This document shows, one piece after another, positions 1-64,000 of a stretch of 64,000 nt of DNA. Every line of letters starts with the position of its first letter. Positions within the stretch are counted from its first letter, which is position 1. The notes beneath the pieces were generated by a model, which did no database searches, was not told the origin of the DNA, and saw only the letters and a list, made by a program, of their open reading frames with translations. Position numbers and translations under genes: made by a program. Source of the DNA: a virus; the IMG/VR virus record IMGVR_UViG_3300034272_001354, positions 1 through 64,000 of that record. One strand, given 5' to 3'.

Positions 1-2440
1 CCTGAAGAACCTGAAGTTCCACTAGAACCTGAAGTCCCTGAAGAACCACTTGTTCCATCAATACCACTAGAACCTGATGTCCCTGAAGAACCACTTGTTC
101 CTGATGTTCCACTTGAACCACTTGTTCCATCAATACCACTTGAACCTGATGTTCCCGAAGAACCTGAAGTTCCACTTGTGCCTGATGAACCTGAAGTACC
201 ACTAGAACCTGAAGTCCCTGAAGAACCACTTGTTCCTGAAGTCCCTGAAGAACCACTTGTACCATCTATACCGCTAGAACCTGATGTTCCACTAGAACCA
301 CTTGTCCCACTTGAACCTGATGTTCCTGATGAACCGCTAGTTCCATCAATACCACTTGAACCTGAAGTTCCCGAAGAACCTGAAGTTCCCGAAGAACCTG
401 ATGTACCATCGATACCTGAAGAACCTGAAGTCCCACTTGTTCCTGACGAACCACTCGTACCTGAAGAACCCGAAGTTCCATCTACACCGCTTGAACCAGA
501 AGTTCCTGATGAACCTGAAGTACCATCAATACCACTAGACCCTGAAGTCCCTGATGAACCACTTGTACCATCTATACCGCTAGAACCTGATGTCCCGCTA
601 GAACCTGATGTCCCACTAGAACCACTTGTACCTGAAGAACCTGAAGTTCCACTTGTTCCTGATGAACCTGAAGTTCCACTTGTTCCTGATGAACCTGATG
701 TTCCACTAGAACCTGATGTCCCACTTGTACCTGATGAACCGCTAGTTCCATCAATACCACTTGAACCAGAAGTCCCTGATGAACCACTTGTACCATCTAT
801 ACCGCTAGAACCTGATGTCCCGCTAGAACCTGATGTCCCACTAGAACCACTTGTACCTGAAGAACCTGATGTCCCTGAAGAACCGCTAGTTCCATCAATA
901 CCACTTGAACCTGAAGTTCCCGAAGAACCTGAAGTTCCCGAAGAACCTGATGTACCATCGATACCTGAAGAACCTGAAGTTCCACTTGTACCACTAGAAC
1001 CACTTGTACCTGATGAACCACTTGTTCCTGAAGTCCCTGAAGAACCACTTGTCCCATCTATACCGCTAGACCCTGATGTTCCCGAAGAACCGCTTGTTCC
1101 CGAAGAACCACTTGTTCCTGAAGAACCTGATGTTCCATCTATACCACTAGAACCGGATGTTCCTGAAGAACCTGAAGAACCGCTTGTACCGTCTATACCA
1201 CTAGAACCTGACGTTCCTGACGAACCACTTGAACCTGACGTTCCTGATGTTCCGCTTGAACCTGATGTTCCTGATGAACCACTTGTTCCGTCTATACCTG
1301 AAGAACCGCTAGTTCCTGAAGAACCTGATGTTCCATCTATACCTGAAGAACCTGAAGTCCCTGAAGAACCTGATGTTCCTGAAGAACCTGATGTTCCCGA
1401 AGAACCTGATGTTCCATCTATACCACTAGAACCGGATGTTCCTGAAGAACCTGATGTTCCATCTATACCTGAAGAACCTGAAGTCCCTGAAGAACCACTT
1501 GAACCTGACGTTCCTGATGTTCCACTTGAACCTGATGTTCCTGATGAACCACTTGTTCCGTCTATACCTGAAGAACCGCTAGTTCCTGAAGAACCTGATG
1601 TTCCGTCTATACCTGAAGAACCTGATGTTCCTGAAGAACCACTTGAACCTGATGTGCCTGACGTTCCAGAAGAACCACTAGTACCTGAAGTACCTGAAGA
1701 ACCTGAAGTCCCTGATGAACCGCTTGTTCCATCTATACCTGAAGAACCTGATGTTCCACTAGACCCTGAAGTCCCTGATGTTCCTGATGAACCGCTAGTT
1801 CCATCTACACCTGAAGAACCCGATGTTCCTGATGAGCCACTTGTTCCATCAACACCTGATGAACCTGATGTTCCTGATGAGCCACTTGTTCCACTAGACC
1901 CTGAAGTTCCTGATGTTCCTGATGAACCACTTGTTCCGTCTATACCGCTTGAACCTGATGTTCCTGATGAACCACTAGTTCCATCTATACCACTAGACCC
2001 TGAAGTCCCAGACGAACCACTTGTTCCTGAAGAACCCGAAGTTCCTGACGAACCACTTGTTCCGTCTATACCTGAAGAACCTGATGTTCCTGATGAACCA
2101 CTAGTCCCTGAAGAACCACTTGTTCCTGAAGAACCTGAAGAACCACTTGTTCCTGATGTTCCTGATGAACCACTTGTACCATCTATACCACTAGACCCTG
2201 AAGTTCCTGACGAACCACTTGTTCCTGACGAACCACTTGTCCCTGAAGAACCACTTGTTCCTGAAGAACCTGATGTACCATTTGTTCCACTTGAACCACT
2301 TGAACCTGAAGTACCGTTTATACCTGAAGAGCCACTTGTCCCTGAAGAACCACTTGTCCCTGAAGAACCACTTGTTCCTGACGAACCTGATGTACCACTT
2401 GAACCTGAAGTCCCTGAAGAACCACTTGTTCCGGCAGTTC
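1..2440 (-). repeat. Degenerate 9-nt tandem repeat encoding GTS/GSS/GID triplets
   Basis: Continuous cctgaagaa/cctgatgtt/ccacttgtt/ccatctata units on the + strand. Confidence 0.95.
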
Positions 2441-3431
2441 CTGAAGTTGAAGTATACGCTACAGCCGCGACACCTACATTTTTTATATCAACAATAATTG
2501 AAGGTGCCGCAGGTATTAATGGTGATGTTTGACCACTAATTGCCGTTAATTGAACACCTGTTTTAGTTGCTGAAAACGCAATTTCAATATAATCTCCTTG
2601 ATTTAATTGAAGTATTGTTTGTATATATGGTAATGCTTTAATATTAGGGCTCGCAAAACCTTCAACACTATTTGTCCTGTCAACATTATTACCATTTATT
2701 TTTAACCAAACATTAACATCTAAATCACCATTAAATAGAGTTTTTTCAACCATTGGTGAAAACCCAATTTCATATATACCATTATATTGGATTGTAATTT
2801 TTGACCCATTAACAATTGAAATACCATTTTCTATTTCAACAGTATCATAAGTTACGATATATTCGGTATTTGCAGAAGTAGCAAATTGAGTTTGAGAACT
2901 ACTATATGTTGCATAATAGTTAGCGACACCTATACCTGATGTCCCTGACGAACCACTTGTCCCTGATGAACCACTAGTTCCATCTATACCACTAGACCCT
3001 GAAGTTCCTGAAGAACCTGACGTTCCTGATGAACCACTTGTTCCGTCTATACCCGAAGAACCTGATGTTCCTGAAGTACCGGCTTGAGCAATTAAACCCC
3101 AATTGAAATTGGTGTCCGGAGCACCTCCACCTGATGGTATTGTTGTTGTTGCAAGATATGAACTACCATTATAATAGACAACATCTCCTTCAATATAATT
3201 AATTGAAGATGACCAAGTCCCTTTCCAAATAAAACTTTTTCCGTCAATACCGGAAGTTCCACTTGTACCTGATGAGCCAGAAGTTCCCGCACTAAATTGT
3301 GCAGTTAAGGCTGAATAATATATGTAATTTGTCTGTCCGGTAGGTACCAGGTCATAGTTTACTATAACTAAAAGAGATTCCGGAAATGCCGAAAACGCTT
3401 GAGGTAACTGTGAAATAGGTATATTTGCCAT
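1..3431 (-). CDS. Collagen-like (Gly-X-Y: GTS/GSS/GID) fibre protein, partial, runs off the window end; contains a CBM-like motif and a C1q/BclA-like domain
   Basis: ATG at 3431 reads MANIPISQLPQAF..., then WKGTWSSSINYIEGDVVYYNGSSY, a beta-rich domain (KITIQYNGIYEIGFS...VWLKING...LQLNQGDYIEI) and about 810 aa of Gly-every-third-residue repeats in frame to position 1; TATTTAT motif upstream. Confidence 0.85.
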   Translation of the reverse strand, partial: MANIPISQLPQAFSAFPESLLVIVNYDLVPTGQTNYIYYSALTAQFSAGTSGSSGTSGTSGIDGKSFIWKGTWSSSINYIEGDVVYYNGSSYLATTTIPSGGGAPDTNFNWGLIAQAGTSGTSGSSGIDGTSGSSGTSGSSGTSGSSGIDGTSGSSGTSGSSGTSGIGVANYYATYSSSQTQFATSANTEYIVTYDTVEIENGISIVNGSKITIQYNGIYEIGFSPMVEKTLFNGDLDVNVWLKINGNNVDRTNSVEGFASPNIKALPYIQTILQLNQGDYIEIAFSATKTGVQLTAISGQTSPLIPAAPSIIVDIKNVGVAAVAYTSTSGTAGTSGSSGTSGSSGTSGSSGTSGSSGTSGSSGTSGSSGINGTSGSSGSSGTNGTSGSSGTSGSSGTSGSSGTSGSSGTSGSSGIDGTSGSSGTSGTSGSSGSSGTSGSSGTSGSSGTSGSSGIDGTSGSSGTSGSSGTSGSSGTSGSSGIDGTSGSSGTSGSSGIDGTSGSSGTSGTSGSSGTSGSSGTSGSSGVDGTSGSSGTSGSSGVDGTSGSSGTSGTSGSSGTSGSSGIDGTSGSSGTSGSSGTSGTSGSSGTSGTSGSSGSSGTSGSSGIDGTSGSSGTSGSSGIDGTSGSSGTSGSSGTSGTSGSSGSSGTSGSSGIDGTSGSSGTSGSSGIDGTSGSSGTSGSSGTSGSSGTSGSSGIDGTSGSSGTSGSSGIDGTSGSSGTSGSSGTSGTSGSSGSSGTSGSSGIDGTSGSSGSSGTSGSSGIDGTSGSSGTSGSSGTSGSSGTSGSSGIDGTSGSSGTSGTSGSSGTSGSSGTSGTSGSSGIDGTSGSSGTSGSSGTSGSSGIDGTSGSSGTSGSSGTSGSSGTSGSSGTSGSSGIDGTSGSSGTSGSSGIDGTSGSSGTSGTSGSSGTSGSSGTSGTSGSSGTSGTSGSSGTSGSSGTSGSSGTSGSSGIDGTSGSSGTSGSSGIDGTSGSSGTSGSSGVDGTSGSSGTSGSSGTSGTSGSSGIDGTSGSSGTSGSSGTSGSSGIDGTSGSSGTSGSSGTSGSSGTSGSSGIDGTSGSSGTSGTSGSSGTSGSSGTSGSSGTSGTSGSSGTSGSSGIDGTSGSSGTSGTSGSSGTSGSSGIDGTSGSSGTSGSSGTSGSS

Positions 3432-54751: not shown

Positions 54752-55531
54752 TTAATATATATACCTTTCTTTCAAAGAAAGATTTTTATCTGAGTGTTTT
54801 GTTTGAAAATCAAATAGTTTTTGAATATAACCATTTCGTCTTAAAACTTTAAAAACCAAGTTTTCATTTGAGAATTCCCCCCCATCTTCTAAACCTCGTG
54901 TTCTGTATTTTTTAAGTTTATCTTTAAATTTATTTATAATTTCTTTAGAAGTTTCTAACGAATCCTCATCTTCAGCATCATTGATTACATCATCAATCAT
55001 TTTCATCCATTCTTCAGATTTAGTTTTAATTAACGTTGTGTCAATCTCAACATCTTCTTTTTTTGGTTTAGTTATCCACTCATCCATCAATACAGAATAC
55101 TCTCCACTACTAGTGTGAGGTTCACTTGTATCCTGAACATACAATTCAACATCATAACCAAAAATGGTAATATTATGTTTATCGTTATATAATGTTTTCT
55201 TTAATCGGAATAGTTCTTCGTATAAAGGTAATTCTTTTTCCGAGAATTGTTTGAAGTCAACAAGAATGTGTAGGTCAATATCAGAATATTTTGACCAATT
55301 GTAGTTTGCTAATGAACCGGTCATAACAACATCGTCCACAACCATATCCACACCAATAAAGTCAATAAATTCGTAAGCAATTTGAAGTAGACGTTCTCTA
55401 ACCTTTGGCACCATGATTTCATCCTGACCTTTTGGGTCGGACATATACCTTTCATTAGGTAGTTCCCAAATTTTAGGATTTAACTCATCTTGTAGATGAA
55501 AGCTAGATAATATACTTTTTAAATTACTCAT
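54752..55531 (-). CDS. Pol-beta superfamily nucleotidyltransferase
   Basis: TGSLANYNWSKYSDIDLH (GS-x-DxD) and VELYVQD; ATG at 55531 after TATTTAT. Confidence 0.75.
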   Translation of the reverse strand: MSNLKSILSSFHLQDELNPKIWELPNERYMSDPKGQDEIMVPKVRERLLQIAYEFIDFIGVDMVVDDVVMTGSLANYNWSKYSDIDLHILVDFKQFSEKELPLYEELFRLKKTLYNDKHNITIFGYDVELYVQDTSEPHTSSGEYSVLMDEWITKPKKEDVEIDTTLIKTKSEEWMKMIDDVINDAEDEDSLETSKEIINKFKDKLKKYRTRGLEDGGEFSNENLVFKVLRRNGYIQKLFDFQTKHSDKNLSLKERYIY

Positions 55532-56102: not shown

Positions 56103-56150
56103 TTCAATAAATATAATTTAAATTTGTTTTGTCCATTCAAATATTTGCAT

Positions 56151-56158
56151 TACTTTTG
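56151..56158 (+). promoter_or_regulatory. Bacteroidota-type -7 box upstream of clpC
   Basis: TACTTTTG with upstream TTTG. Confidence 0.55.
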
Positions 56159-56214: not shown

Positions 56215-58260
56215 ATGACAGAATCTATGGATGGTGGAAGTAACGGTGGAAATAAAGCAGTTAAAACTGATTCATCAACTCCCGTATTAGACAATTTTAG
56301 TAGAGATTTAATAAAACTTGCCGAAGAGGGTAAACTTGACCCGGTGGTTGGTAGAGAAAGAGAAATCACTCGAATTGCACAAATCCTTTCACGTAGAAAG
56401 AAAAATAACCCAATTATTATTGGTGAACCTGGTTGTGGTAAAACCGCAATTGTTGAAGGTCTTGCCATTATGATTTATAATGGGGATTGTCCAAGAAACT
56501 TAATGGACAAAAGAATTGTGTCATTAGATATGACATCAATTGTTGCGGGAACAAAATATCGTGGACAATTTGAAGAAAGAATGAAAGTCATTATCGAAGA
56601 ACTTCAAAACGAACCAAACATCATTGTATTCATTGACGAAATCCACACAATCGTTGGAGCAGGTAATTCATCAGGTTCAATGGACGCGTCGAATATCTTC
56701 AAACCAGCACTTGCTCGTGGAGAGATTCAATGTGTTGGGGCAACCACTTTGGATGAATACAGAAAAAACTTTGAGAAAGACGGAGCGTTAGAAAGACGTT
56801 TCCAAAAAGTTGTTGTGGATGCTGCAACCAAAGAAGAGACATTAATCATCCTTAAAAATGTAAAAGACAAATACGAGAACTACCACAAGGTAACTTATAC
56901 TGATGAAGTATTGTCTGTATGTGTTGATTTAGCAGACCGTTATATCACAGATAGAGAATTCCCGGACAAAGGATTCGACATTATTGATGAGGTTGGAGCG
57001 AGAAGTCAGGTAGATGTGAAAATGCCAGATTCAATTGAAAAATTGAAACTTCAAGCGTCAAACATTAAACAAGAAAAAATTGATGTAGTAAAACAACAAC
57101 GATACGAGGAGGCGGCAAACCTACGTGATAAAGAAAAACGTATCTTAACCAAACTTGAAGCTGAAAAGAAAAAGTTTGAAGAAGAACTTCTTACACACAA
57201 AAAAGAAATCACTTTGGATTTAGTTTATGAAGTGGTTTCCAATATGACAAAAATTCCAGTTACCAAATTAAATGCTGATGAAACCAAACTATTGTCAGAG
57301 ATGGAAACAAATCTATCTGATAAAGTTATTGGACAATCTGAAGCAGTTTCAAAGATTGCAAAATCAATCCGTAGAAACAGAATTGGTATTAAAGACCCGA
57401 ACAAACCAATCGGTTCATTCATCTTTTTAGGTTCAACAGGTGTTGGTAAAACATACTTGGCAAAACAACTAGCGAAACAAATGTTCGGTAGCGAAGATAA
57501 TATGATTCGTGTGGATATGTCCGAGTACCAAGAAAAACACACCATTTCAAGATTAATTGGAGCACCTCCGGGATACGTTGGATACGATGAAGGTGGACAA
57601 TTAACCGAACAAGTGAAAAACAAACCTTATTCTGTAATTCTATTTGATGAAATTGAGAAAGCAAACAAAGATATCTTTTCAACACTTCTTCAAGTATTAG
57701 ACGATGGTCACCTTACCGATGGTATGGGGAGAAAGATTAACTTCAAAAATTGTGTCATCATTATGACATCAAATGTTGGAGCTAAAAAATTACAAGATTT
57801 TGGTTCAGGGGTTGGTTTTAAAACAGGAGCTAGTTCTTATGTAGAAGAAGAATACAAACGTGAGACACTTAAAAAAGAACTTAAGAAATTCTTTACTCCG
57901 GAATTCTTAAACAGAATTGATGAGGTTGTTATCTTTAACTCTTTGGTTAAAGAAGACGTTAAGAAAATCGTTAAATTGGAATTGGACAAACTATCTAAAA
58001 GATTGGTTGGATTGAAATATAACATAACATTTGATGAAAGTATTTTAGAACTAATCTCTGAAGTTGGATTTGATGAAACCTACGGGGCAAGACCAATCAA
58101 AAGAGCTATCCAAGATAAGATTGAGGATTTTGTATCTGAAGAGATTATCAAAGGAAATATGGTGGAGGGTGTTCCATACACCCTTGTATCCGTAGAGAAA
58201 GAAGTGGTGGTCAAAACAGAACCTACCAAAAAGACAAGAAAGAAAAAAGAGGACAATTAG
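56215..58260 (+). CDS. clpC: ClpC-like AAA+ unfoldase lacking the N-terminal domain
   Basis: Two Walker A motifs ([16 protein letters not shown]), GTKYRG pore loop, UVR motif [18 protein letters not shown] ClpP-docking loop. Confidence 0.88.
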
Positions 58261-58272
58261 TCCTCTTTTTTT
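58243..58272. terminator. Bidirectional terminator
   Basis: AAAAAAGAGGAC-AATTA-GTCCTCTTTTTT. Confidence 0.8.
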
Positions 58273-58280
58273 ATATTAAA

Positions 58281-58703
58281 TTATTTTTCAAAACTCATAA
58301 GAAACCTTTCAAATTCTTGTAAAATATTAGGTTTTGACAATAAAGGAAACTTTTTAGGTTCAATTGCTAATCCCATTCCGTGAATTTTATCTTTAGTTCC
58401 TACCTGACTAGGTTCTTTAACTTTTTTGGTTTTAACAATAGCATAATCAGGATTAAAAGTAACAAATAACGTTAATTTTTTTTCAGGTATATTTTTCATA
58501 AATTTTAATTCAGAACCCCCTGTTTCTATCGAATAATTAAGTTTTCTCAAAACTGAGTCTAACATTTGAGGTGTTACCTTTTTTTCTTTTTTAGGAGTAG
58601 GAGTTGGTACTCCCTGTTCAGAAATTACATTTTTTTTACCTGAGTGCATCTCAAGGATTCTATTTTTCTCATCTTGAGAAATGTCATTAAATAAATTTTT
58701 CAT
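58281..58703 (-). CDS. Leader-bearing hypothetical protein
   Basis: MKNLFNDISQDEKNRILEMHS leader shared with 37393..38523. Confidence 0.7.
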   Translation of the reverse strand: MKNLFNDISQDEKNRILEMHSGKKNVISEQGVPTPTPKKEKKVTPQMLDSVLRKLNYSIETGGSELKFMKNIPEKKLTLFVTFNPDYAIVKTKKVKEPSQVGTKDKIHGMGLAIEPKKFPLLSKPNILQEFERFLMSFEK

Positions 58704-58732
58704 ATCGTTATCTTTTTATTATAAATATATCG

Positions 58733-58765
58733 AAAAAAAAAGAGAACATTAAGTCCTCTTTTTTT
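58733..58765 (-). terminator. Intrinsic terminator
   Basis: AAAAGAGAAC...GTCCTCTTTT imperfect hairpin flanked by A/T runs. Confidence 0.6.
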
Positions 58766-58766
58766 A

Positions 58767-59588
58767 TTAAAACAATTTAAAATATTTACTATCAACTTTA
58801 AACGGATACTTCTTATATCCTAACCCCTCAATCATCTTTTTACCGGTCTCTATTCCACTATAAACATCTTCGACAACAACATACTCATTTGGGGTGTGAT
58901 AGTTGTAATAACCTATCGCAAAATTGATACAGGAGAAATCAAAGATATTCTTTAATGCGTAAACATCTGTATATGGGTGAGATTGATAGTCATGTCTACC
59001 GTTAAACCCTTCGTTTAATGCTACATCACAAATTTTAAAAAATTCACTATCTCTTTCAAACAATTGTGTTCCCATACAATATTCACTAACCATAACATTT
59101 CCCGGAGCATCAAACTGAATACCATAACCAACATTTAAAAAGAAATTTGGGTCGGCCTTTTTAGAACCATGACATCCGGTTTCTTCTGATACAAAGAATG
59201 CCGCTTTTAAATTTGGTAATTCTTTTAATAATTCCAAACAAGCAAAAACCCCACATTTATCGTCACCACCAATACCTGTTGGGTGTCCAAAATGATTATA
59301 CGCTTTTAGGGATGGTTTTAAAACTTTTTGTTCGTTAGGTAATGTTTCCTCACGAATAATAATGTTATCCAAAGAGTGGACCGTGTCGGTATGAGCAATC
59401 ACACAAGGGAAATATTCAATAAATTCATCGGTTTGTTTAACCGCATAAATATTATTATGCTCATCCATATTAAATGGAATCCCATTGTCTTCTAACCATT
59501 TGATTAGAAACTCAACCATAAGGTCTTCTTGATATGTTTTTGTCGGAACTGACAAAACTTCTTTTAATAATTCATAATCTCTATCCAT
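58767..59588 (-). CDS. M20/M28-family zinc peptidase
   Basis: AHTDTVH, GGDDKCG, EETGC.GS, QFD, YHT..E. Confidence 0.85.
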   Translation of the reverse strand: MDRDYELLKEVLSVPTKTYQEDLMVEFLIKWLEDNGIPFNMDEHNNIYAVKQTDEFIEYFPCVIAHTDTVHSLDNIIIREETLPNEQKVLKPSLKAYNHFGHPTGIGGDDKCGVFACLELLKELPNLKAAFFVSEETGCHGSKKADPNFFLNVGYGIQFDAPGNVMVSEYCMGTQLFERDSEFFKICDVALNEGFNGRHDYQSHPYTDVYALKNIFDFSCINFAIGYYNYHTPNEYVVVEDVYSGIETGKKMIEGLGYKKYPFKVDSKYFKLF

Positions 59589-59592
59589 TCAA

Positions 59593-59600
59593 CAAAGATA
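59593..59600 (-). promoter_or_regulatory. Bacteroidota-type -7 box, 4 nt from the ATG
   Basis: TATCTTTG-TTGA-ATG. Confidence 0.6.
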
Positions 59601-59630
59601 ATATAAAATATGACAATATTAAAGATTTTA

Positions 59631-60998
59631 TTAGTTTATTCTAATAAACCCTTCAAATAACTCGGGAGAAACTAAAAAGTTATTAAATTCTTCTTCGGTG
59701 TAACTTCTATCTTCCAATCCACCACCATCTTTTTTAAACACTTGAACAACAATTTTATTTGTTGCCGGGTCGATTTTTCTAATAAAAAACTCTCTACCTG
59801 ATTTAGTTTCATATCTGTTGTTAAGATGATAATTTTTAGTAATTCTATTGAATATATTAGAGTATTCATAAACATCAATAAATTCATCAGAATCTTCTAT
59901 TTTTTCAAAGATTTTATCAAGTTGTCTTTCCACAGATTCATTGAATGATTTTTCATCAAAGCTGACACTATCAATTTCCCACCTATTCTCATCCCATCCG
60001 CCAATATTACTATCTCTATGACCAATATTTTTTAACACTTCTCGTAAAGATAATGTTTTATCTCCAACGTTGTTATATAAAGATAATAATATACTCACAG
60101 TGGTGTAATACTGTCTAAAACAATCTTGTCTAATTAAACCATAATTAGAAAAATAATCACACACGTCACCCTCAATCCATTCTTTGGCACCATTATTTCT
60201 ACTAGCATTTTCTTCGTCAGTCCAATCAGTAATAATGTAATCAACCTCATTTGGAAACATTTTCTCTAATAATTTACTAGATTGTTCTTTGTCTTCATCA
60301 GTATCTAATTTAGCGGTAGATGGACTAATAAGTCGAAGTATTTGTTTTAATTTAGTTAAATTGTCATCTGAAAATTGATATAAAAGATATCCTTCATTCC
60401 ATTCATTATATCCGTGGTCATAATCAATAAAATTGGCTCCATCATAATAAGAATAAACCGATTCCGCAAAAGGAATATCGTATTCGTCAATATCAAATAA
60501 TTTTAAATAATCCTCCATATCATCAAACTGAAGTTTAACCATACTTTTAGTTGGATTTTTCTCATTATATATGAACTTCCAAACAAGGTCGTCAGCTCTT
60601 TGCATTTGATTAGACGTTACTTTTTCTCCGTTTTTAACATCCAATAGTAATTTGTAAACATCTGATTGACCCACAATATTATCAACAACGGATTTAACCT
60701 CATCCGGTAAATCGGATTCAAATTCACTTCTATTTAATTCTCTGTGTCTGGTTGCTTCACCACCATAATATTCTATTTTATTATCTTGTGTTTTATGAAT
60801 AACTGATGTTTGAATTGGTTCCTTATTTTTATCTATAATAAAATAAGTGTCCCCCTCTTTAAATTGATTCCATCTGTCTTTATAGTTTTCCGGTGCGTAA
60901 TAAACAAAGGAATCGTAGTCCAATGGGTCTACAACCATCCAATCTTCATTATCTAATAATATATTTTTCATCCCGTGAAAATCCTTTGTGTCAGGCAT
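59631..60998 (-). CDS. Hypothetical acidic protein
   Basis: 455-aa ORF after TATTTAT (61016-23). Confidence 0.75.
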   Translation of the reverse strand: MPDTKDFHGMKNILLDNEDWMVVDPLDYDSFVYYAPENYKDRWNQFKEGDTYFIIDKNKEPIQTSVIHKTQDNKIEYYGGEATRHRELNRSEFESDLPDEVKSVVDNIVGQSDVYKLLLDVKNGEKVTSNQMQRADDLVWKFIYNEKNPTKSMVKLQFDDMEDYLKLFDIDEYDIPFAESVYSYYDGANFIDYDHGYNEWNEGYLLYQFSDDNLTKLKQILRLISPSTAKLDTDEDKEQSSKLLEKMFPNEVDYIITDWTDEENASRNNGAKEWIEGDVCDYFSNYGLIRQDCFRQYYTTVSILLSLYNNVGDKTLSLREVLKNIGHRDSNIGGWDENRWEIDSVSFDEKSFNESVERQLDKIFEKIEDSDEFIDVYEYSNIFNRITKNYHLNNRYETKSGREFFIRKIDPATNKIVVQVFKKDGGGLEDRSYTEEEFNNFLVSPELFEGFIRIN

Positions 60999-61053
60999 TG
61001 ATATTTATTTTAATAATAAATATAATTTTATTTGGATTTATCCAAAAATGTAT

Positions 61054-61061
61054 TATCTTTG
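61054..61061 (+). promoter_or_regulatory. Bacteroidota-type promoter of tmRNA
   Basis: TATCTTTG with TTTG at 61031. Confidence 0.7.
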
Positions 61062-61075
61062 TGGTATCAAAATAT

Positions 61076-61471
61076 GGGGGTAAAATGGTATTGACTGGCA
61101 TATCTACTTATTTGGGGCACGTAGTGAGAAGTTTCCTATCACTTAAATCTATGGATGACAAAATTATAAATGGCAACATTTTAAACAAAATGGCTCTAGT
61201 AGGTCTTGTACGTCAAGACGAGCTTGTGAACGTAGCGTAAGCAAACACACATTCGGGCCGGTGAGCATTACGCCTAGGAACAGAAGCTTTTACAAAGGTG
61301 TGGTACCTATCCGAAAAGGTACAAGTGGAGGATTAGTTCTCAATAAACCGAACCACTCAAAAATAAGGGAATTGTGAAATTTCGGATTGTTAGCTTAAAC
61401 AATGTCCTAAACGTGTAGTCCTGAACACTTAGGGTGAGCAACACGAGGCTTCGAAGCCTCTACCTCCACCA
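61076..61471 (+). ncRNA. ssrA: tmRNA
   Basis: 5' GGGGGTA pairs with 3' TACCTCC-ACCA including G3:U70; GTATTGAC D-like region; TTCGAA T-loop; ATAAAT|GGC resume context; tag ORF 61172-61240; smpB nearby. Confidence 0.92.
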
Positions 61472-61475
61472 AAAG

Positions 61476-61504
61476 AAAAACCCATCATTACGATGGGTTT
61501 TTTT
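61476..61504. terminator. Bidirectional terminator after tmRNA
   Basis: AAAAACCCATC-ATTAC-GATGGGTTTTT. Confidence 0.85.
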
Positions 61505-61527
61505 ATTATCAGTTCAATGTTTATTTT

Positions 61528-61860
61528 TTAATCTTGTAATAAATCCTTTTTACTCGGATTCAATTTATTCGTTAATTTATCTAATCTTGAATCAACAAAT
61601 CTATATATTTCGTCAATATGAGTCGTAATATGTCTATTCGTTGTTTCATTTAATTTATTTGTTCTATCAATCTCACCATCAATACGACGGTTAATCATTT
61701 GGTCTACCTCATCTATTCTTAAATAAATATTATTTATTATTTCTTGTTGAGTTCTAACCAATCCTTTTAATTTTTTGATGTTTGAATACATCCTAACCAC
61801 AACTATAACCCCCAGTATCCCGAGAACCATAACCATACCTAAAAACATTCCTATAATCAT
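61528..61860 (-). CDS. Single-TM coiled-coil protein
   Basis: Hydrophobic N-terminus followed by a heptad-like region. Confidence 0.6.
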   Translation of the reverse strand: MIIGMFLGMVMVLGILGVIVVVRMYSNIKKLKGLVRTQQEIINNIYLRIDEVDQMINRRIDGEIDRTNKLNETTNRHITTHIDEIYRFVDSRLDKLTNKLNPSKKDLLQD

Positions 61861-61905
61861 AATTTCTGTGTTTTATTTATTTGTTTATTTGAACTGATAA
61901 TTTTA

Positions 61906-62298
61906 TTACATTTTAACTTCTTGGTGACCCCCACCCCATAAATAACCATCACCATAATTTGTACAAATTTCTTCACCGGGTTGGATTGTTTGTAAAGCAT
62001 AAAATTGGAATGCTCTTTTTGTTGGATGATTTCTCCACATAGCATTATTTGTATCTGAATGATTATATATACACCCATAACCTAATGGAATCACATATTC
62101 TTCCCAATTTGGTCCTTGAGGATAACAAAATCTATAATCATCAAGTAGTTTTGATTTTTCCCATTTTTTTGTGGGTAATTTTACTAAATGACATTCTTCA
62201 ATTACCTCATCTTTTTGAATAACGTCAATAGCAAAGACCCCCATTCCTTTTCCTGGTGAGGGTTTAATTTCTATTTTAGTAGGTATTAATAAATTCAT
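61906..62298 (-). CDS. SET-domain protein-lysine methyltransferase
   Basis: SPGKGMGVFA, IYNHSD..NA, ALQTIQPGEEICTNYG. Confidence 0.9.
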   Translation of the reverse strand: MNLLIPTKIEIKPSPGKGMGVFAIDVIQKDEVIEECHLVKLPTKKWEKSKLLDDYRFCYPQGPNWEEYVIPLGYGCIYNHSDTNNAMWRNHPTKRAFQFYALQTIQPGEEICTNYGDGYLWGGGHQEVKM

Positions 62299-62323
62299 AA
62301 TTTAATTATAATAAAAAAAGGAA

Positions 62324-62761
62324 CTATTTCAAGTCCCTTTTCATATCTCTTTCAATATCCCGAGATTTAATACTATCTCGTTTATCGTGGAGTTTTTTTC
62401 CTTTGGCGAGAGCAATCTCCATCTTAACCAATCCGGTGTCATTTATGAAGACACGATAAGGAATGATGGTTGTCCCGTTTATTAACTCACGTTCCAACTT
62501 ATTTAGTTCTTTTTTCTTGGCCAATAGTTTTCTATCTTTAACTGTTTCATGGAATGACCCATAACCATAATCGGAGATGTTCATTCCCTTTATAAACAAT
62601 TCCCCATCATTAAAATAACAATACCCTTCAGATATGGAGACCTTTCCTTGACGGATGGACTTCACCTCTGAACCAACTAATTTGATTCCCACAATTAGGG
62701 TTTCTAAGAATGAATACTCAAACTTGGCTTTCTTATTGACTATGTTAATTGATTTTTTCAT
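62324..62761 (-). CDS. smpB: SsrA-binding protein SmpB
   Basis: NKKAKFEY, GIKLVGSEVKSIR, RKLL, AKGKKLHDKR; ATG at 62761. Confidence 0.95.
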   Translation of the reverse strand: MKKSINIVNKKAKFEYSFLETLIVGIKLVGSEVKSIRQGKVSISEGYCYFNDGELFIKGMNISDYGYGSFHETVKDRKLLAKKKELNKLERELINGTTIIPYRVFINDTGLVKMEIALAKGKKLHDKRDSIKSRDIERDMKRDLK

Positions 62762-62765
62762 AGGA

Positions 62766-62773
62766 CAAAGATA
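62766..62773 (-). promoter_or_regulatory. Bacteroidota-type -7 box, 4 nt from the smpB ATG
   Basis: TATCTTTG-TCCT-ATG. Confidence 0.6.
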
Positions 62774-62793
62774 ATATAAAAATTGGTATAAAC

Positions 62794-62827
62794 AAAAAAA
62801 GGTGTCACATTTCTGTAACACCTTTTT
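62794..62827 (-). terminator. Terminator of the large ncRNA
   Basis: AAAAAGGTGTTACA-GAAA-TGTGACACCTTTTTTT. Confidence 0.85.
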
Positions 62828-63714
62828 GGCTAATACGATGAGAATACTCGTGTTATTAAGAATCTTCGGAAGGATTATTGTTTCCCTTCTTTTCCACCAT
62901 CTTTTGAATGGTAATCCTCAGTGACAATTGGTTAGACCAATTACTCCTTGAGATATCATCTACTCTCTTATTATTCAACTCTCTTCAACCTTGCGGGCTG
63001 ACTCCGGATTCGACTCCGTAGAGGTTTTTCGTAAGAATACATTCTGACTTGCGGTCATCCTGTGCAACGAACGGCTCGTTACTATGTAGTCACCTTGTCG
63101 ATGATACCTGACAGACACTTTTGCTTATGTATCTTTTTAGTTTTACTTAAAATGTCCTATAAGTTAATTGTGTTGTGGATGTGTCCAAGTAGAGGTCTGT
63201 CGTAAGCTTCGTTATCTTTTGAACAACAAAATACTAATCTACTCGGTAGAGTGTCCCCACTCTCATATTTTAAGATTACTTCAAACTGACATCTTGGTAG
63301 ATGTTTCGTAAGGTTAGTAGCGACACCACTCGTTCTCTAACTTACCTTTCGGTTTTAAGTCCCCTTTGATATTGGAATCCGTAATTATAAGGTTGGATGA
63401 CCCTATTTCTCACATAATCCCTATCGGTTATTCTTGTTGGTGTTCCCACCTCAACCTGACGACCCACATCGCCCGGTCACCCAACCACTTTCTCTAAAGC
63501 GTTGCCCTCAATACTGAAGGTCAGGTGATATCCGACTTGTATACTCGAGCTCCCTTTCAGAAGCCGCAGAACCAATAACACTAATGATTCCACTTTATCC
63601 CGGTTTCCCGGTTTATTTAAGGATGATATACCACCCATTATCGTTTCTTACATCACCGAAGTGTGTAATGGATAATCTAAAATTTCTAAGAACGTTTAAG
63701 GTTTCCCTCAATTG
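62828..63714 (-). ncRNA. Large (~0.9 kb) structured ncRNA, GOLLD-like (family assignment tentative)
   Basis: No ORF of 60 aa or more, raised GC, own promoter and terminator, many hairpins with UUCG/GNRA loops, adjacent to tRNA-like genes. Confidence 0.75.
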
Positions 63715-63719
63715 TTTTA

Positions 63720-63749
63720 CAAAGATAAGTGATTTTTTTCATTTGTCAA
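63720..63749 (-). promoter_or_regulatory. Promoter of the large ncRNA
   Basis: TTGACA (63749-44) ... TATCTTTG (63727-20). Confidence 0.75.
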
Positions 63750-63787: not shown

Positions 63788-63878
63788 TGGTATCGGCGGG
63801 GTTCGAACCTGCGGCACAGAGTCTTTCGTTACTCTTGCTCTACCAAGGAAGATAAATCTTCCACTGAGCTACAATACC
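63788..63878 (-). tRNA. Aberrant tRNA-like RNA (hairpin inserted in D-loop, 8-nt anticodon loop; no amino acid assignable)
   Basis: GGTATTG/CGATACC-A acceptor, GCTC/GAGC D-stem, AGAGT/ACTCT stem with loop AACGAAAG, GGTTCGAACCC T-arm. Confidence 0.75.
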
Positions 63879-63889
63879 ATGTAAAAAAA

Positions 63890-63964
63890 ATGTGGGTGTA
63901 TGCTCTACCATCTGAGCTACGGATAAATCCGGAGGGATTTGAAACCTCGACACGACACCCACAC
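63890..63964 (-). ncRNA. Circularly permuted tRNA-like RNA (YrlA-like topology)
   Basis: 5'-GTGTGGGTGT-CGTGTC-GAGGTTTCAAATCCCTC-CGGATTTATCCG-TAGCTCAGATGGTAGAGC-AT-ACACCCACAT. Confidence 0.75.
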
Positions 63965-64000
63965 TAATCTTTCAATATTTTTATGAACTTTATTTCTTGT

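Follow-up and report, generated by a model that had tools for sequence, protein, structure and literature searches.

A phage locus for a tmRNA, SmpB, an N-domain-less ClpC and a clan MH peptidase: candidate ribosome rescue and disposal of tagged proteins

Does a virus that codes, within 6.5 kb, for a transfer-messenger RNA (tmRNA), its partner protein SmpB, a ClpC-type unfoldase and a metallopeptidase carry a single system, in which stalled ribosomes are rescued and the tagged products destroyed, or a set of independent functions? The question is raised by a stretch of 64,000 nucleotides (the window), which is the first 64 kb of the 76,982-bp IMG/VR record IMGVR_UViG_3300034272_001354. A sequence-only reading had proposed that the four genes form a co-regulated module of trans-translation and proteolysis that could counter host defences or recycle ribosomes. 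Profile scores and motifs establish that all four genes are real (Table 1), and the four-part locus is confirmed. The tmRNA and SmpB very probably make up a working rescue system, judging from the conservation of their sequences; for the wider proposition, in which Clp components and the peptidase would dispose of the tagged chains, the evidence is evenly balanced. To our knowledge, tmRNAs have been listed in phage genome surveys for years and a function has been shown for none of them. The record is rated 26% complete by CheckV. Its close relatives are contigs of 308-322 kb rated complete, among which G007 is collinear with the window, which is thus a piece of a jumbo phage of ~310 kb.

The tmRNA, its tag and SmpB

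The tmRNA gene is matched by the full Rfam model RF00023 (positions 1-374) with 50.3 bits, for a gathering score of 47 and a range of 45.6-105 bits among its relatives. ARAGORN, run on the window, called no tmRNA, most likely because the T-loop has 6 bases instead of 7. The acceptor stem occurs as GGGGGUA/UACCUCC, GGGAGUG/CACUUCC or GGGGAUG/CAUCUCC, with both strands changed, in an alignment of 28 distinct relatives where positions 4, 5 and 7 covary and G3:U70 is constant. G3:U70 is the alanine identity pair read by alanyl-tRNA synthetase (AlaRS). Comparison of 22 phage tmRNAs revealed compensatory changes at 14 of the 22 predicted pairs, and the T-stem pairs are altered on both sides in 2-14 of the 22 sequences. 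Covariation is also seen in the P2 helix and in the PK1 hairpin; the fit of the central region to the Rfam model is poor, with low posterior values. A T-loop of 6 nucleotides (nt) is also found in several other lineages, whose stems are different yet complementary, and this recurrence together with covarying stems argues for a tolerated variant and not for decay. The tmRNA is covered by contigs of four metatranscriptome libraries from different studies, as is, at very high word depth, a neighbouring GOLLD RNA; such contigs report presence in RNA libraries, neither level nor strand.

The tag reading frame begins with a GGC resume codon at position 61172, as in Bacteroidota tmRNAs, and ends with TAA at 61238. 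The same frame was called by ARAGORN in relatives. Its nonsynonymous rate (dN) is lower than the synonymous rate (dS) in nearly every pair of sequences, and amino acid identity is 0.65 in this frame against 0.46 in the other two; by these comparisons the 22-residue tag is under purifying selection. Relatives carry the tags GNVLDKMSAIGLIRAEEVVVA, GETIAKLSAVGLIRSEEVVTA, GNVLDKMETLGLVRESEVTVA and others, with plentiful synonymous changes. The phage tag has the conserved body GN[IV]LxKM..GL[IV]R and the end V-A. Tags are longer still in more distant phages, for example the 26-residue GNIFNIDENFLANASVEVVAGEAIAA of the G041/L171 lineage, and their carboxyl terminus is non-polar (VA or AA) in all lineages. 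The commonest length of tmRNA tags overall is 10 residues (PMC11915505). No tmRNA lies within 3 kb on either side of smpB in any of the bacterial smpB loci that were compared, so that the host-type tags were drawn from whole-genome searches: tags of 9 residues, of the GENNYALAA type (YA[LM]AA), are encoded in five Bacteroidota genomes. Set beside these Bacteroidota tags, that of the phage is long, and it is conserved and unlike those of candidate hosts.

SmpB exceeds the cut-offs of two NCBIfam equivalog models (NF003843, 156.2 bits for a cut-off of 130; TIGR00086, 154.7 for 119.1) and matches the Pfam family PF01668 with an E-value of 4e-47. The basic carboxyl-terminal tail of SmpB, which follows the GKKxxDKR motif, is required for entry to the decoding centre. 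In the phage protein this tail, GKKLHDKRDSIKSRDIERDMKRDLK, aligns with those of solved SmpB proteins and is kept in 11 phage homologues, which bears out the description of an intact SmpB given in the sequence-only reading. Co-occurrence was followed in 10 complete relatives, 8 selected via SmpB and 2 via the peptidase. The tmRNA is found in 8/8 of the SmpB-selected genomes, even at a distance of 60-195 kb (in G012 SmpB lies near 23 kb and the tmRNA at 218 kb, and the two are likewise far apart in G041 and G047), and SmpB is found in 2/2 of the peptidase-selected ones, remote from the block of genes that surrounds the peptidase. Both components therefore co-occur in 10/10 complete relatives.

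Two features of related tmRNA genes were observed aside from these comparisons. A second, partial tmRNA 3' end follows the tmRNA in five loci (L016 11464-11888, L014 10965-11377, L023 10985-11399, L008 4498-4917 and L042 9715-10134), as exemplified by ...CTTCCAC TTCCACCGGAGAGTCCCGACACCTCCATC; these duplications resemble scars of insertion into the tmRNA gene. The tmRNA of G012 (L085 7103-7515), a phage whose ClpC and SmpB are 69% and 79% identical to those of the window, codes nearly letter for letter for the window tag and differs from the window tmRNA in the type of its acceptor and T arms. The same tag on different arms suggests recombination between tmRNA alleles of these phages.

The ClpC unfoldase, ClpP and the peptidase

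The best solved relative of the phage unfoldase is Staphylococcus aureus ClpC (6em8), with which it aligns continuously over residues 151-801 (747 bits). The Walker A/B pairs of the two AAA+ modules, GEPGCGKT with FIDEIH and GSTGVGKT with LFDEIE, and the pore loops KYRG and GYVG are invariant in five phage orthologues. The ClpC-type middle domain, with a UVR-like motif, is aligned throughout with that of S. aureus ClpC (13 residues paired with QEFENAANLRDKQ), in contrast to ClpB and ClpA, which align in two separate stretches only. GSGVGF (residues 530-535) aligns with the loop FAGFG of S. aureus ClpC and its residues G534 and F535 are invariant, a pattern that makes it a putative ClpP docking loop. 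The phage protein begins at the linker, which corresponds to residue 151 of S. aureus ClpC, and the amino-terminal domain, a double Clp_N repeat that binds adaptors and phospho-arginine, is absent. The 112 bp 5' of clpC are intergenic, with the next gene on the opposite strand, and no Clp_N domain was found anywhere in 4 complete close relatives; the orthologue of the distant relative G041 has 837 residues and retains Clp_N. The presence of pore loops and of a VGF loop in a ClpC without amino-terminal domain, as originally described, thus holds.

A bona fide ClpP is encoded in 8/8 of the SmpB-selected complete genomes, with E-values of about 1e-52 and scores of ClpP models far above those of prohead-protease models; its Ser-His-Asp motifs are in place. 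ClpX (TIGR00382) was not found in five complete relatives, which leaves ClpC as the sole phage Clp ATPase in those genomes. ClpC would partner the phage ClpP in most relatives and host ClpP in others. Host ClpP, the partner put forward at the outset, is accordingly one option and not the only one. A complex prediction of the ClpC D2 region (350-660) with two copies of the ClpP of relatives gave a score of 0.08 for a mark of 0.32, which speaks neither for nor against binding.

The peptidase belongs clearly, by its sequence, to clan MH; its family is not clear. The Pfam M20 score of 25.4 bits is just above the cut-off of 24.6 and that of M42 (18.2) is below its cut-off of 23.2, while NCBIfam models of peptidase T-like proteins score far under their cut-offs. 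Matches were obtained with phrog_4191 (4.9e-36) and with peptidase T in the PDB (E-value 4.7e-5). Residues H66, D68, D109, E135, E136, D160 and H231 are invariant among 9 orthologues, down to 38% identity, and match the aligned peptidase T motifs; from what is known of the clan we take them to include the five co-catalytic metal ligands and the general-base Glu. The assignment to M20/M28 made in the sequence-only reading was right as to the clan. The alignment to peptidase T leaves out residues 171-333 of the latter chain, and neither an M20 lid/dimerisation domain nor a PDZ-like domain of the M42 type is found; together with the length of 273 residues, this implies that the peptidase is the catalytic domain alone.

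Gene order, promoters and surroundings

Gene order was compared in 80 peptidase-selected loci, from roughly 540 peptidase-bearing contigs overall. The block tmRNA-orf455-peptidase-ClpC-(orf110a)-nucleotidyltransferase is present in 80/80 of them, the tmRNA being missing only where the contig ends. In the distant lineage G041/L171 (353-362 kb; cluster at L170 3021-7819 and L171 3034-7813) the peptidase is 36-38% identical to that of the window and clpC and smpB are elsewhere. There, on one strand, DnaJ and small open reading frames (ORFs) are followed by ClpP, a terminator, a promoter, the tmRNA, a small ORF and the peptidase, the last with a leaderless box as in the window. That the tmRNA keeps its place beside the peptidase while its Clp neighbour switches from ClpC to ClpP is, of all that these sequences provide, the strongest indication of a functional link. 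The expectation that the four genes co-occur was thus borne out for tmRNA with SmpB and for the block of tmRNA, peptidase and ClpC, and not for SmpB as a member of the block.

In the window the promoter word TTG-N19-TAnnTTTG is found at 13 sites, compared with 2.66 +/- 1.48 in shuffled sequences; none of 100 shuffles reached 13. TAnnTTTG is the flavobacterial sigma-A -7 box, located at -12 to -5 (PMC9723704). It precedes all four genes, as had been noticed from the sequence: the box TATCTTTG is identical at the tmRNA, smpB and the peptidase, and clpC has TACTTTTG with a proper -33 element. Among distinct upstream regions of relatives the box is kept in 32/39 for SmpB, 46/59 for the peptidase and 21/48 for ClpC (full motif in 17/48); it was found in 0/8 for orf455 and 0/60 for the nucleotidyltransferase. 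A scan for sigma-70 promoters of the Escherichia coli type gave 42 sites for 39 expected and is uninformative. Spacing of 4 nt between box and ATG is found in 30/32 of the SmpB relatives and 40/46 of the peptidase relatives that have the box, and for the peptidase also in the distant L170/L171 (near 7000). A box at -12 to -5 that ends 4 nt before ATG places the start of transcription on the A of the ATG, so that leaderless mRNAs are predicted for smpB and the peptidase. Leaderless mRNAs account for only about 5.5% in Flavobacterium (PMC9723704). Terminators bracket each of the four genes, each of which is predicted to be its own transcription unit. The same promoter class precedes the GOLLD RNA, a tRNA-like RNA, tRNA clusters and several small genes, and therefore probably marks genes read by the unmodified host polymerase and not a private regulon. 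Of the proposed co-regulation, the common promoter class stood and its restriction to the four genes did not. A candidate late-promoter word, TTATATTTAT, was observed ahead of orf455 and orf110a.

Table 1. Coordinates of the locus and of the features that flank it, as positions of the window
Feature	Position	Strand	Remarks
Sigma-A type promoter of clpC	56129-56158	+	TTG-N19-TACTTTTG
ClpC-type double-ring AAA+ unfoldase	56215-58260	+	681 residues, without N-terminal Clp_N; middle domain, pore loops, GSGVGF loop
Hairpin terminator	58243-58271	.	Common to clpC (+) and orf140 (-)
orf140	58281-58703	-	No family; only in some relatives
Clan MH (M20/M28/M42-like) peptidase	58767-59588	-	273 residues, single-domain, di-zinc
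-7 box of peptidase	59593-59600	-	TATCTTTG; -33 weaker; ends 4 nt before ATG
orf455	59631-60998	-	Conserved, fast-evolving; no host-type promoter
Sigma-A type promoter of tmRNA	61032-61061	+	TTG-N19-TATCTTTG; predicted start ~10 nt before mature 5' end; conserved in tmRNA alignment
One-piece tmRNA	61076-61471	+	Rfam RF00023; acceptor 5' GGGGGUA / 3' UACCUCC, then encoded ACCA; T-loop 6 nt
Tag reading frame	61172-61240	+	22 residues, GNILNKMALVGLVRQDELVNVA, and TAA stop
Hairpin terminator	61476-61502	.	Directly past tmRNA 3' end
SET-domain protein	61906-62298	-	130 residues; accessory gene, few relatives only
SmpB	62324-62761	-	145 residues; true start ATG at 62761; full C-terminal tail GKKLHDKRDSIKSRDIERDMKRDLK
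Sigma-A type promoter of smpB	62766-62795	-	Box 62766-62773, ends 4 nt before ATG
GOLLD RNA, conserved 3' domain	62835-63246	-	Rfam 306.5 bits; promoter 63720-63749; terminator 62796-62827

The product of orf455, encoded between tmRNA and peptidase in 77/80 loci with identities of 23-79%, has no sequence match in Pfam, PHROG, NCBIfam or the PDB and nothing usable in the ESM Atlas; its structural model, a confident one with a predicted local distance difference test (pLDDT) score of 89.6, has no Foldseek match at E <= 0.001 (best VIA Z 5.2). At 54752-55531 (-) of the window a 259-residue protein with a weak NTP_transf_2 match is encoded beside clpC, an arrangement found in 75/80 loci and never with a host-type promoter.

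On the other side, the GOLLD RNA lies directly upstream of smpB but is a separate transcription unit, outside the smpB transcript. About half of the related loci have it at a distance of no more than 8-10 kb from the tmRNA block. Its contigs reach word depths in the thousands in three lake metatranscriptomes, where cover is slight or absent for the peptidase, orf455 and most of smpB; contigs of this kind cannot rank expression. A 91-nt tRNA-Pro-like gene (37.5 bits) and an abutting sub-threshold YrlA match (40 for a cut-off of 69) were observed at 63788-63975 (-), both behind a TATCTTTG promoter at 64009. Beyond the window, positions 66,253-70,485 of the record (L005 4254-8486) code for an Rnl1-family RNA ligase, an AAA_33 P-loop kinase, a Metallophos phosphoesterase, whose gene likewise has the box at 4 nt from the ATG and is predicted to give a leaderless mRNA, and a cREC_REC protein. 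From their families these genes look like a tRNA heal-and-seal kit; 13 more tRNA genes lie beside them, and they remain near GOLLD/SmpB in relatives.

Near-identical copies of the stretch are present in 18 metagenome runs from lakes and fresh water. Of the 80 bacterial SmpB proteins nearest to the phage SmpB (46-57% identity) only one is not labelled Bacteroidota, and these kin and the promoter word point to a Bacteroidota phage. At the far end of the window (1-3431), G+C content is 47% in the first 2-3 kb for about 30% elsewhere, and long open frames are found at 1-2532 (+) and 3-3431 (-).

Interpretation and relation to known systems

With its neighbours the region reads as a translation-maintenance island in which tRNAs would be supplied, healed and sealed, ribosomes rescued and debris cleared. 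Host RNA polymerase would transcribe the genes of the island early in infection and host AlaRS would charge the phage tmRNA. The SmpB-tmRNA complex would then enter ribosomes halted on mRNA that is broken or lacks a stop codon, or for want of an intact tRNA, and release them while Ala and GNILNKMALVGLVRQDELVNVA are appended to the nascent chain. The ClpC devoid of its N-domain may unfold the tagged chains and feed them to ClpP, phage-encoded in most relatives and otherwise that of the host, and the peptidase, made from a predicted leaderless mRNA, may trim the peptides so produced to amino acids. With the tRNA array and the heal-and-seal enzymes, the island could sustain translation while mRNA and tRNA suffer damage by host or phage nucleases.

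A number of observations weigh against this joint action of rescue and disposal. SmpB adjoins the block in just 12 of the 80 loci. Within a family of collinear phages, common descent may be enough to keep gene order. The block also holds orf455 and the nucleotidyltransferase, which have no evident link to the other genes. Both peptidase-selected complete genomes have ClpC and lack ClpP, which brings ClpP to 8/10 overall, and the complete genome G047 has the tmRNA, SmpB and ClpP and lacks ClpC. In the family the ClpP gene is distant from that of ClpC, and in G007 no host-type box lies directly upstream of it. Two docking-pocket positions, which we take to be Y60 and F112 in E. coli ClpP numbering, are Ser in the ClpP of this clade, a point of caution only. 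The tag ends in V-A and not in the L-A-A read by ClpX, and we know of no defined ClpC degron. The T-loop of the window tmRNA, lastly, is one base short. This same feature, the missing ARAGORN call, the Rfam score barely above its cut-off and the duplicated 3'-end segments of some relatives, similar to integration scars, would suit a tmRNA-like gene that is a non-functional relic, such as a piece of an attachment site or a gene acquired from a host and now in decay. Such an origin as attP relic or pseudogene was rejected and is hardly credible: the gene is full-length with its own promoter and terminator, its helices show compensatory changes, G3:U70 and CCA are kept, the tag frame is under purifying selection, the short T-loop recurs with covarying stems, and the tmRNA is present in all 10 complete relatives and covered by contigs from RNA libraries.

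It is a real possibility that two independent functions lie side by side, tmRNA-SmpB carrying out rescue and ClpC (with ClpP) and the peptidase serving general proteostasis or host takeover, with no special relation to the tag. Host protein would be broken down for amino acids, or the quality of a large phage proteome controlled, and the neighbourhood would be a host-derived early auxiliary island. The single promoter class that drives many unrelated genes and RNAs at 53-76 kb of the record agrees with this, as do the unrelated genes of the block, the fact that ClpC, ClpP and tmRNA are each missing or scattered in some complete relatives, and the DnaJ of the G041 cluster, which fits general protein quality control. 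Independence accounts less well for the adjacency of tmRNA and peptidase, which outlasts rearrangement even where the peptidase has diverged and ClpC is exchanged for ClpP, and for the fact that in five complete genomes with a private tag no Clp ATPase but ClpC was found. A counter-defence role takes its context from the adjacent RNA repair set and tRNAs. In its stronger form, phage tmRNA-SmpB, tRNAs and RNA repair would replace host versions that defences cut or sequester, ribosome release would be their main value, and the long tag would not be a Clp degron, serving for instance to mark or neutralise truncated products or to avoid host ClpXP/SspB. The ligase, kinase, phosphoesterase, cREC protein and 14 tRNAs do resemble kits against anticodon nucleases, and the tag is unlike the YA[LM]AA type of Bacteroidota; this replacement set is nevertheless improbable, since no defence system or nuclease target was identified at the island, the non-polar tag end of all lineages is like that of known degrons, and the Clp and peptidase neighbours suit degradation. 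The more elaborate version of rescue with disposal, a private tag-and-destroy circuit insulated from the host, is rather doubtful: its tag would be poorly read by host ClpXP/SspB and specifically read by an adaptor-independent, N-domain-less ClpC with phage or host ClpP, the peptidase would finish the work as an aminopeptidase, and the whole would be an arm of an anti-ribotoxin island with tRNA supply, heal-and-seal enzymes and possibly GOLLD, through which phage translation could go on while mRNA and tRNA are destroyed by host defences or by nucleases of the phage itself.

The family offers an unusually complete testable case, with a matched tmRNA-SmpB pair, a selected and distinct tag, a single candidate unfoldase devoid of its regulatory domain, a linked peptidase and, nearby, genes for tRNA repair. 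Joint function of these parts would mean that a virus can possess its own degron system and that rescue of ribosomes belongs to the arms race over translation; it would also give Bacteroidota engineering an orthogonal tag/protease pair. Without such cooperation the block would still serve to mark, cleanly, a freshwater phage family that is very abundant. The literature searched holds no account of the long selected tag, of an N-domain-less ClpC as the only Clp ATPase, of the cross-lineage linkage of the peptidase, of the leaderless geometry or of the union with RNA repair genes.

In bacterial trans-translation, the ssrA tag is degraded by ClpXP, or by ClpAP, with the adaptor SspB, and mycobacterial enzymes of the ClpC1 type are also able to degrade ssrA-tagged proteins. 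The phage locus shares with the bacterial system the one-piece tmRNA with its alanine identity pair, the full SmpB and the non-polar tag end, and with bacterial Clp disposal an AAA+ unfoldase that has a putative ClpP-docking loop and, in most relatives, ClpP. It differs in being encoded by a virus, in a tag of 22 residues with a conserved body and V-A end where 9-10 residues are usual, and in the nature of the sole phage Clp ATPase, which is an N-domain-less ClpC and not ClpX; a peptidase is its neighbour and no SspB-like adaptor was recognised in it. The repair genes recall phage T4, in which polynucleotide kinase-phosphatase and RNA ligase 1 repair tRNA against the anticodon nuclease PrrC. 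An Rnl1-family ligase, a P-loop kinase and a phosphoesterase likewise stand beside a tRNA array here; unlike in T4, the phosphatase is separate and of the Metallophos type, a cREC protein is added, and the putative kit lies beside tmRNA-SmpB and GOLLD.

Among phages, tmRNAs are found in about 2.3% of sequenced genomes (PMC9004378). Huge phages, including the Lak megaphages of Prevotella, carry tmRNA and SmpB (Al-Shayeb et al. 2020, PMC7162821), and the phage of the window resembles them as a large Bacteroidota phage with both among its translation genes. SmpB homologues of 42-48% identity are present in Lak and in phage records of 634-735 kb, and no SmpB more than 60% identical to that of the window was found in deposited phage records. 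That study lists genes; the tag, the ClpC/peptidase block and the promoters are not described there. The OM43 phage Melnitz has a two-piece tmRNA behind an early promoter, for which its authors suggest a part in maintaining hijacked ribosomes or in recycling host protein (PMC9004378); neither SmpB nor Clp is reported for it, whereas the window phage has SmpB and ClpC. A parallel in the association with Clp components is that of Bacillus megaphage G, which has a tmRNA, ClpX and ClpP and whose tag AKLNITNNELQVA (PMC12484599), like that of the window, ends in V-A. Both phages pair a tmRNA of their own with Clp parts of their own; in phage G the unfoldase is ClpX and no SmpB is reported, whereas here SmpB is present, the unfoldase is an N-domain-less ClpC, and a peptidase is linked across lineages.

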